Shown piece by piece: positions 822-940 of a DNA stretch of 64,000 bases. The first letter of the stretch is position 1, and every line of letters starts with the position of its first letter. The stretch is taken from assembly GCF_041886205.1 (NCBI RefSeq), contig NZ_CP169029.1; one strand, given 5' to 3'. Source of the stretch: Escherichia coli (GTDB taxonomy: Bacteria; Pseudomonadota; Gammaproteobacteria; Enterobacterales; Enterobacteriaceae). The notes beneath the pieces are model-generated. The model ran no database searches and was not told where the DNA came from. It saw only the letters and a program-made list of their open reading frames with translations. The translations under genes and the position numbers were made by a program.

Positions 822-940
822 TTCTCAACGGGGTGCCACGCGGACGCGTGCGCTGAGAAAATACCCGTCGAACCTGATCCGGATAACGCCGGCGAAGGGA
901 TTTGAGGCTCCTTCTCAAGTCCTTTGCCACTCTTTTTTGA
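822..940 (+). promoter_or_regulatory. TPP (THI-box) riboswitch in the thiBPQ leader
   Basis: Contains the conserved THI-element motifs GGGGTGCC...CTGAGA...ACCCGTCGAACCTGATCCGGATAACGCCGGCGAAGGGA directly upstream of thiB. Confidence 0.85.

Follow-up and report, generated by a model that had tools for sequence, protein, structure and literature searches.

The closest described counterpart of the locus studied here is the thiB (tbpA) leader of Escherichia coli K-12, which carries a TPP riboswitch of the Rfam family RF00059. In K-12, thiB translation is repressed by TPP, and an anti-P1 stem has been shown experimentally on a sequence identical to ours (PMC10578472). A mutation designed to weaken the pairing of the ribosome binding site within the sequestering stem abolishes the TPP response (PMC10578472), and the G121C substitution in the Shine-Dalgarno (SD) sequence, which corresponds to position 941 of our sequence, abolishes both expression and the TPP response (PMC11487190). 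TPP also lowers the mRNA level, and co-transcriptional sensing is more efficient (PMC11487190); the published works disagree on the contribution of Rho to this mRNA effect (PMC10578472 on one side, PMC5499598 and PMC11487190 on the other). The natural K-12 thiB promoter is weak and is itself unresponsive to TPP (PMC11487190). A more distant relative is the thiM TPP riboswitch, which shares the aptamer family and is likewise a translational OFF switch, in which the TPP-stabilised P1 helix permits an SD-sequestering helix to form. It differs in the gene, in the P3 arm and in the sequence of the expression platform. As for the DNA upstream of the riboswitch, the closest described arrangement is the sgrR-espY2-thiB region of E. 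coli O157:H7, where EspY2 corresponds to ECs0073 of strain Sakai (PMC5931665). Public genome annotations already contain the riboswitch, SroA, the thiBPQ operon and an espY2 insertion separating sgrR from thiB, and the mechanism of the switch has already been dissected experimentally.

The window analysed here is a stretch of 64,000 nucleotides of an E. coli genome (contig NZ_CP169029.1). Over positions 1-1100 the window shares 100% identity with strain C9 (locus L001; window position = L001 position minus 5000), which served as a proxy for the DNA lying to the left of the window. A single SNP between the two was observed at 1188. They are collinear up to 4240, where C9 has a copy of IS621 (IS110 family, L001 9240-10518), inserted in REP-like sequence downstream of thiQ, that is lacking in the window. 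The strain of the window is thus closely related to C9 but distinct from it.

An earlier note on this DNA had claimed that the THI-box aptamer in front of thiB is intact, and had named beforehand a cmscan search with the TPP model as the check. Scanning the whole window against all Rfam families, we found an RF00059 match at 819-918 (+), which covers the full model (1-105 of 105) with a score of 65.8 bits, above the gathering score of 54.3 (E = 1.1e-10). The claim is thereby borne out. In a permissive search of the 1.1-kb interval 1-1100, RF00059 was the sole RNA family matching at E <= 1 (E = 1.9e-12), and in strain C9 the same bases are annotated by PGAP as a TPP riboswitch. The interval proposed in the earlier note (822-940) does fall on the riboswitch but is slightly displaced: the TPP aptamer (THI element) occupies 819-918 (+), and the expression platform 919-951 (+). 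Elsewhere in the window, the ES003 sRNA was found above its Rfam gathering score at 46789-46841 (-), with 87.4 bits. Two naRNA4 (CssrE) matches also exceeded the gathering score, at 9754-9819 (+) and 16765-16844 (+), with 60.2 and 75.8 bits; their sequences are of the REP/BIME type that is typically found between E. coli genes.

The structure line of the cmscan alignment gives, on the plus strand, the aptamer helices P1 (824-828/902-906), P2 (829-834/861-867), P3 (835-839/848-853), P4 (873-875/896-898) and P5 (879-882/889-892), while the optional P3a stem, whose absence is tolerated by the RF00059 model, is not present. Across 14 Enterobacterales thiB leaders, pairing is complete (100%) in P1, P2, P4 and P5 and amounts to 90-92% in P3. 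The ligand-contacting core, composed of CUGAGA in J3/2 and of the pyrophosphate-sensor arm ACCUGAUCYGG...CCRGCG.AGGGA, matches as a pattern from window position 853, and its columns are invariant across the same 14 leaders. The GTG start codon (949) of thiB follows 30 nt after the end of the aptamer, on the same strand, and thiamine transport genes lie downstream. The gene thiB (tbpA) itself (949-1932, +) encodes the 327-aa periplasmic binding protein of the thiamine ABC transporter, as established from the open reading frame and the annotation of the identical C9 sequence, and it is followed by thiP and thiQ in an intact thiBPQ operon. The open reading frame listing places the start of the thiB frame at a TTG at 937, whereas the annotated start of the 327-aa C9 protein is the GTG at 949. 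By its score, its core, its helices P1-P5, its gene context and its expression platform, the element is a member of the TPP-riboswitch family.

A different form of the P3 arm was observed in Citrobacter werkmanii NBRC 105721 (L059 9748-10015, +), where the thiB TPP aptamer contains about 120 extra nucleotides inside P3 and, with this insert, scores 50.1 with the TPP model, below the gathering score of 54.3. The insert matches the Rfam family V_AS5 with 51.8 bits, under the V_AS5 gathering score of 96, and it contains GTGAATCCCCAGGAGC...GTGACTGGGGT, probably the core of an ERIC-type repeat. This arrangement has the appearance of a repeat element that has entered the variable arm of the riboswitch.

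Upstream of the aptamer, a relaxed hexamer scan placed the thiB promoter on the plus strand, with a -35 hexamer TTGCTG at 786-791, a 17-nt spacer and a -10 hexamer TACACT at 809-814. The hexamers are weak, with 7 of 12 consensus positions, and they form the sole plus-strand candidate upstream of the leader in this relaxed scan; a strict search of 500-1000 for sigma-70 promoters and terminators returned nothing. The promoter sequence is identical to that of K-12, and the -10 hexamer is kept as TACACT or TACAAT in other Enterobacterales leaders. The assignment rests on the relaxed scan together with the 5' ends mapped in homologues. From the position of the promoter, a start at about 820-821 is expected, and the homologues (K-12 and Salmonella) place the putative transcript 5' end at 819-821 (+). 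More in detail, the start determined in Salmonella by 5' RACE, 129 nt before the GTG, maps to window position 820 (PMC3511261), and the numbering of published mutants implies a +1 at 821 (PMC11487190) or at 819 (PMC10578472). The K-12 sroA annotation (75516-75608), corresponding to the 93-nt SroA RNA, maps onto window 821-913; as judged from sequence, SroA is the transcript of the riboswitch aptamer.

We then compared the promoter and leader with those of K-12. The locus, the promoter hexamers, the aptamer, the linker, the sequestering stem, the SD and the GUG start are the same in the two, and in the BLAST alignment to the K-12 sgrR-thiB region, window 784-1029 is identical at 244 of 246 positions, the aligned block running to at least 1029. 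One of the two differences falls at 843 (+), in the apical loop of P3, the variable arm, where K-12 has T/U and the window, like O157:H7, has G; it is the only difference in the aptamer and the only one in the whole promoter-leader unit. The other, at 963, is synonymous and affects codon 5 of thiB. The thiB leader of O157:H7 is identical to that of the window. Besides the U at 843, K-12 differs from the window in having the 3' end of sgrR upstream of -37, where the window has an espY2-type islet. We are highly confident in reading window 786-951 as the standard promoter of E. coli thiBPQ (tbpA) with its TPP-riboswitch leader, both left intact by the islet upstream.

In a sample spread across the 5,398 matching E. 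coli genomes, K-12-type genomes align to this region only from window position 784 rightwards, in agreement with the earlier observation that the upstream DNA is unlike that of K-12. A second K-12 alignment block, corresponding to the end of sgrR, is found about 1.5 kb further left in C9. The K-12 empty site reads GGATCCATGATTGCTGGTTGATAAC, in which TGA is the stop codon of sgrR. The left junction in C9, GGATCCTGAGTAGCTGGCGCC, makes SgrR one residue longer (...PPDPE* instead of ...PPDP*), and the right junction in C9, CTCTATGGATTGCTGGTTGATAAC, is the same in O157:H7. BLAST, the junction sequences and the empty site of Escherichia albertii together place the right junction of the islet, which corresponds to the sgrR stop codon of K-12, at 784/785, within the interval of 612 to 820 that had been anticipated for the breakpoint. 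The upstream region, described earlier as rearranged, does differ from K-12, and the difference is more precisely the simple insertion of an islet of the espY2 type. Only 1-2 nt separate the junction from the -35 hexamer downstream of it, and the whole promoter-leader unit lies to the right of the junction. Because the junction stops just outside this hexamer, promoter and riboswitch have been left unaltered, and the survival of the riboswitch is to be expected, since the entire unit lies beyond the breakpoint.

The gene order in C9 is leuD, setA, sgrT, sgrR, an oppositely oriented pentapeptide-repeat gene, the riboswitch and thiB-thiP-thiQ, while K-12 has 35 nt after the stop codon of sgrR, then SroA (93 nt) and thiB. 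The length of the islet differs between C9 (about 1.5 kb) and O157:H7 (about 1.0 kb), and its GC content (37-47%) is 10-15 points lower than that of the sgrR and thiB flanks (51-58%). The islet occurs in about 1,035-1,042 of the 5,426 complete genomes of E. coli (~19%), O157:H7 included, and is a common polymorphism; the lower count is the number of genomes covering at least 80% of window 1-1100. The right arm of the islet (578-784), which contains the 5' UTR and promoter region of the espY2-type gene and is absent from K-12, was delimited from genome matches, GC content and the start of K-12 homology. It has full-length matches in 1,042 of the 5,426 genomes and a GC content of 39-47%, against 51-58% in the flanks.

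The islet gene has its ATG at 577-575 and runs leftwards on the minus strand (1-577), where the start of the window cuts the open frame after 192 codons. The space between this ATG (577) and the thiB GTG (949) is 371 bp, in line with the approximately 370 bp estimated earlier for two promoters plus the riboswitch. In C9 the frame is uninterrupted for 278 codons (L001 4741-5577, -), and the encoded 278-aa product matches Pfam Pentapeptide (PF00805) with 70.1 bits (cut-off 20.2) and PF13599 with 38.4 bits (cut-off 38), so that the divergent pentapeptide gene recognised in the earlier note is confirmed. The Pentapeptide match covers the C-terminal half of the C9 product; the repeat region starts inside the window and is cut by the window start. 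PGAP annotates over this gene, in C9, a C-terminally truncated pseudogene and a separate 57-aa CDS. We rejected the pseudogene status as unproven, the frame being uninterrupted over its 278 codons.

Window 27-1100 is 93.7% identical to the O157:H7 DNA located between sgrR and thiB and annotated as "espY2: T3SS effector EspY2". The O157:H7 region shares with the window the insertion site, the right junction and the thiB leader, and it differs in its EspY2, which is 189 aa long and has no Pfam match, whereas the product of the C9/window type is the 278-aa one with the Pentapeptide match. The upstream gene is the orthologue of the espY2 annotated at the same locus, and, following this annotation, it may have the role of a T3SS effector. 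Its product contains the motif WETLRNLF at residues 47-54, of the W-E-x5-F form, which may be significant for secretion or translocation by a type III system. Directly 5' of the GGAG SD of the gene, an inverted-repeat search identified a perfect 10-bp palindrome with a 3-nt loop (590-612, -). In K-12 strains, a paralogue (85%; L124 2501-2560) of window 594-653 lies directly in front of yabP, which is located between djlA and rluA. Since yabP/yabQ is, on our assumption, an EspY1-type remnant, the leader hairpin is probably shared by this family of genes.

At the ends of the islet we found neither a clean target-site duplication nor convincing terminal inverted repeats; the weak inverted pairs that were detected are not terminal. 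An imperfect 11-nt direct repeat is present; its left copy is TGAGTAGCTGG (L001 4271-4281) and its right copy TGGATTGCTGG (window 782-792), to be compared with ATGATTGCTGG in the empty site. This repeat could be a decayed target duplication or could be due to chance. The islet was also considered as a transposable element, and no mobility mechanism was assigned to it, its ends offering only the imperfect direct repeat and the non-terminal inverted pairs.

Although the riboswitch is intact, the islet might still change the transcription of thiBPQ, by acting on promoter strength, by modifying the read-through from sgrR or through the silencing of AT-rich DNA. In islet-bearing strains the gene convergent with sgrR separates sgrR from thiB, and the DNA upstream of -37, which in K-12 is the GC-rich end of sgrR, is replaced by the AT-rich islet. 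The low GC content of the islet and the closeness of its junction to the -35 hexamer (1-2 nt) favour such an effect, and the weakness of the K-12 promoter (PMC11487190) means that the upstream context could matter; the core hexamers, on the other hand, are unchanged. A T-rich tract, TTTTTTAAT, at 761-769 (about -60 to -52), where UP elements act, also speaks in favour. Its fit to the UP-element consensus is partial, and this counts against the effect, as do the frequency of strains carrying the islet, O157:H7 among them, and the fact that no thiamine phenotype appeared in the literature searched for other questions. Overall, we judge a change in thiBPQ transcription to be unlikely. A more specific conjecture is that the right end of the islet supplies a UP-like tract and a divergent effector promoter and stops sgrR read-through, with the consequence that, in about one fifth of E. 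coli, basal thiamine uptake would be altered or coupled to virulence-gene or nucleoid-protein control, the TPP feedback being kept. We hold this conjecture as distinctly unlikely.

The presence of the islet in only part of the E. coli genomes can be explained by an insertion or by a deletion, and the outgroups bear on this point. A scan of the genome collection with a degenerate pattern of the aptamer core gave at least 120 loci, which are TPP riboswitches of many phyla. Among the matches listed there are 18 Enterobacterales thiB leaders; Salmonella and Klebsiella are not among them, and the thiM-type junction sequence is not known to fit this thiB-type pattern. These 18 leaders are enough for the outgroup question and thin for covariation. 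Among the matches listed, 12 outgroup loci include sgrR, and in every one of them this gene lies directly upstream of the riboswitch; they belong to E. albertii, two Citrobacter, four Enterobacter-named genomes, a Proteobacteria MAG, Pseudescherichia, Superficieibacter, Pantoea and Mixta. No EspY2 match was found in these 12 loci. Furthermore, the empty site of E. albertii (GGATCCATGATTGCTG / ggatccatgattgctg) is exactly that of K-12. The empty site of E. albertii, the adjacency of sgrR to the riboswitch without espY2 in the outgroups and the low GC content all argue that the islet was inserted, rather than deleted from K-12. It is thus a horizontally acquired insertion between the stop codon of sgrR and the -35 hexamer of thiB, with K-12 in the original state. 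Later losses of the islet, or recombinational exchange, are possible within E. coli.

The flanking imperfect direct repeats could instead be read as the trace of a deletion, by which K-12-type strains would have lost an ancestral islet, and the fair divergence of the islet alleles among strains (91-100% identity) suggests a long residence in E. coli. This is very improbable in view of the exact K-12 empty site in E. albertii, of the 12 out of 12 outgroup loci, among the matches listed, in which sgrR abuts the riboswitch with no espY2, and of a GC content 10-15 points under that of the flanks. Secondary losses within E. coli would not imply that the locus had the islet ancestrally.

The expression platform (919-951, +) includes the SD GAGG at 939-942 and the GUG start at 949. 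Constrained folding and the pairing across the 14 leaders support a putative anti-P1, or antisequestering, stem formed by 898-907 with 913-922 (898-922, +), and the linker CUCAA at 914-918 is a repeat of the 5' strand of P1 (824-828). In both the minimum free energy fold and the fold with the aptamer enforced, a predicted SD-sequestering stem (922-927/944-949 plus 930-932/939-941; 922-949, +) covers the SD GAGG and the G of the start codon. Across the 14 leaders, 96.8% of the cells are paired for the anti-P1 stem and 88.9% for the sequestering stem, and the OFF-state model, composed of aptamer and sequestering stem, is 95.3% paired. When the partners are slid by 1-3 columns, the OFF-state and anti-P1 pairing falls to 25-73%. 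Nearly all the pairs are invariant, and four show a double change, a number reached by 7 of 500 shuffles. The support given by the other species is therefore conservation, mostly invariance, and not covariation or proof of structure; with stems that vary so little, the expression platform offers scant scope for detecting covariation.

When the anti-P1 stem is enforced in constrained folding, the sequestering hairpin persists at equilibrium, and for this reason the ON state would depend on co-transcriptional kinetics, in agreement with the published argument. A purely thermodynamic two-state switch was rejected because the SD stays closed at equilibrium even with anti-P1 enforced, and we followed the co-transcriptional model of PMC10578472. 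According to this model, transcription would start at about 819-821 from the weak sigma-70 promoter (-35 at 786-791, -10 at 809-814). With TPP bound, the aptamer (819-918) would close P1 (824-828 with 902-906), allowing the stem at 922-949 to hold the SD (939-942) and the GUG (949) in a hairpin and to block the binding of the 30S subunit, and a secondary drop in the mRNA level would accompany this block. Without TPP, the linker CUCAA (914-918) would capture the 3' strand of P1 during transcription, giving the anti-P1 stem (898-907/913-922), which would break the aptamer and favour an open SD. The positions mutated in the published experiments are all kept in the window: G35, G121 and U130 of PMC11487190 correspond to 855, 941 and 950, and G17 and the linker 95-99 of PMC10578472 correspond to 835 and 913-917. 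From the identity with K-12, save for one base in the P3 loop, we infer that TPP binding and the same switch operate in the strain of the window.

The 175-nt promoter-leader unit (786-960) was found in 5,398 of the 5,426 E. coli genomes, with at least 95% identity in all but two of them. That the element could be a non-functional relic, or mainly the trans-acting sRNA SroA rather than a cis riboswitch, as the 93-nt SroA RNA annotated over the K-12 aptamer might suggest, is hardly credible against such conservation, the intact thiBPQ operon that follows the leader and the TPP-dependent cis repression demonstrated twice on the near-identical K-12 leader (PMC10578472, PMC11487190).

The analysis fixes the junction of the islet to the base (784/785) and settles the direction of the event as an insertion, and it shows that the promoter-leader unit is essentially invariant across the natural variation of E. 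coli. These are the useful results; beyond its correct annotation, the locus has little wider significance. If the islet does alter the basal transcription of thiBPQ, the locus would be a small example of how a horizontally acquired gene can reshape the promoter context of a housekeeping operon.
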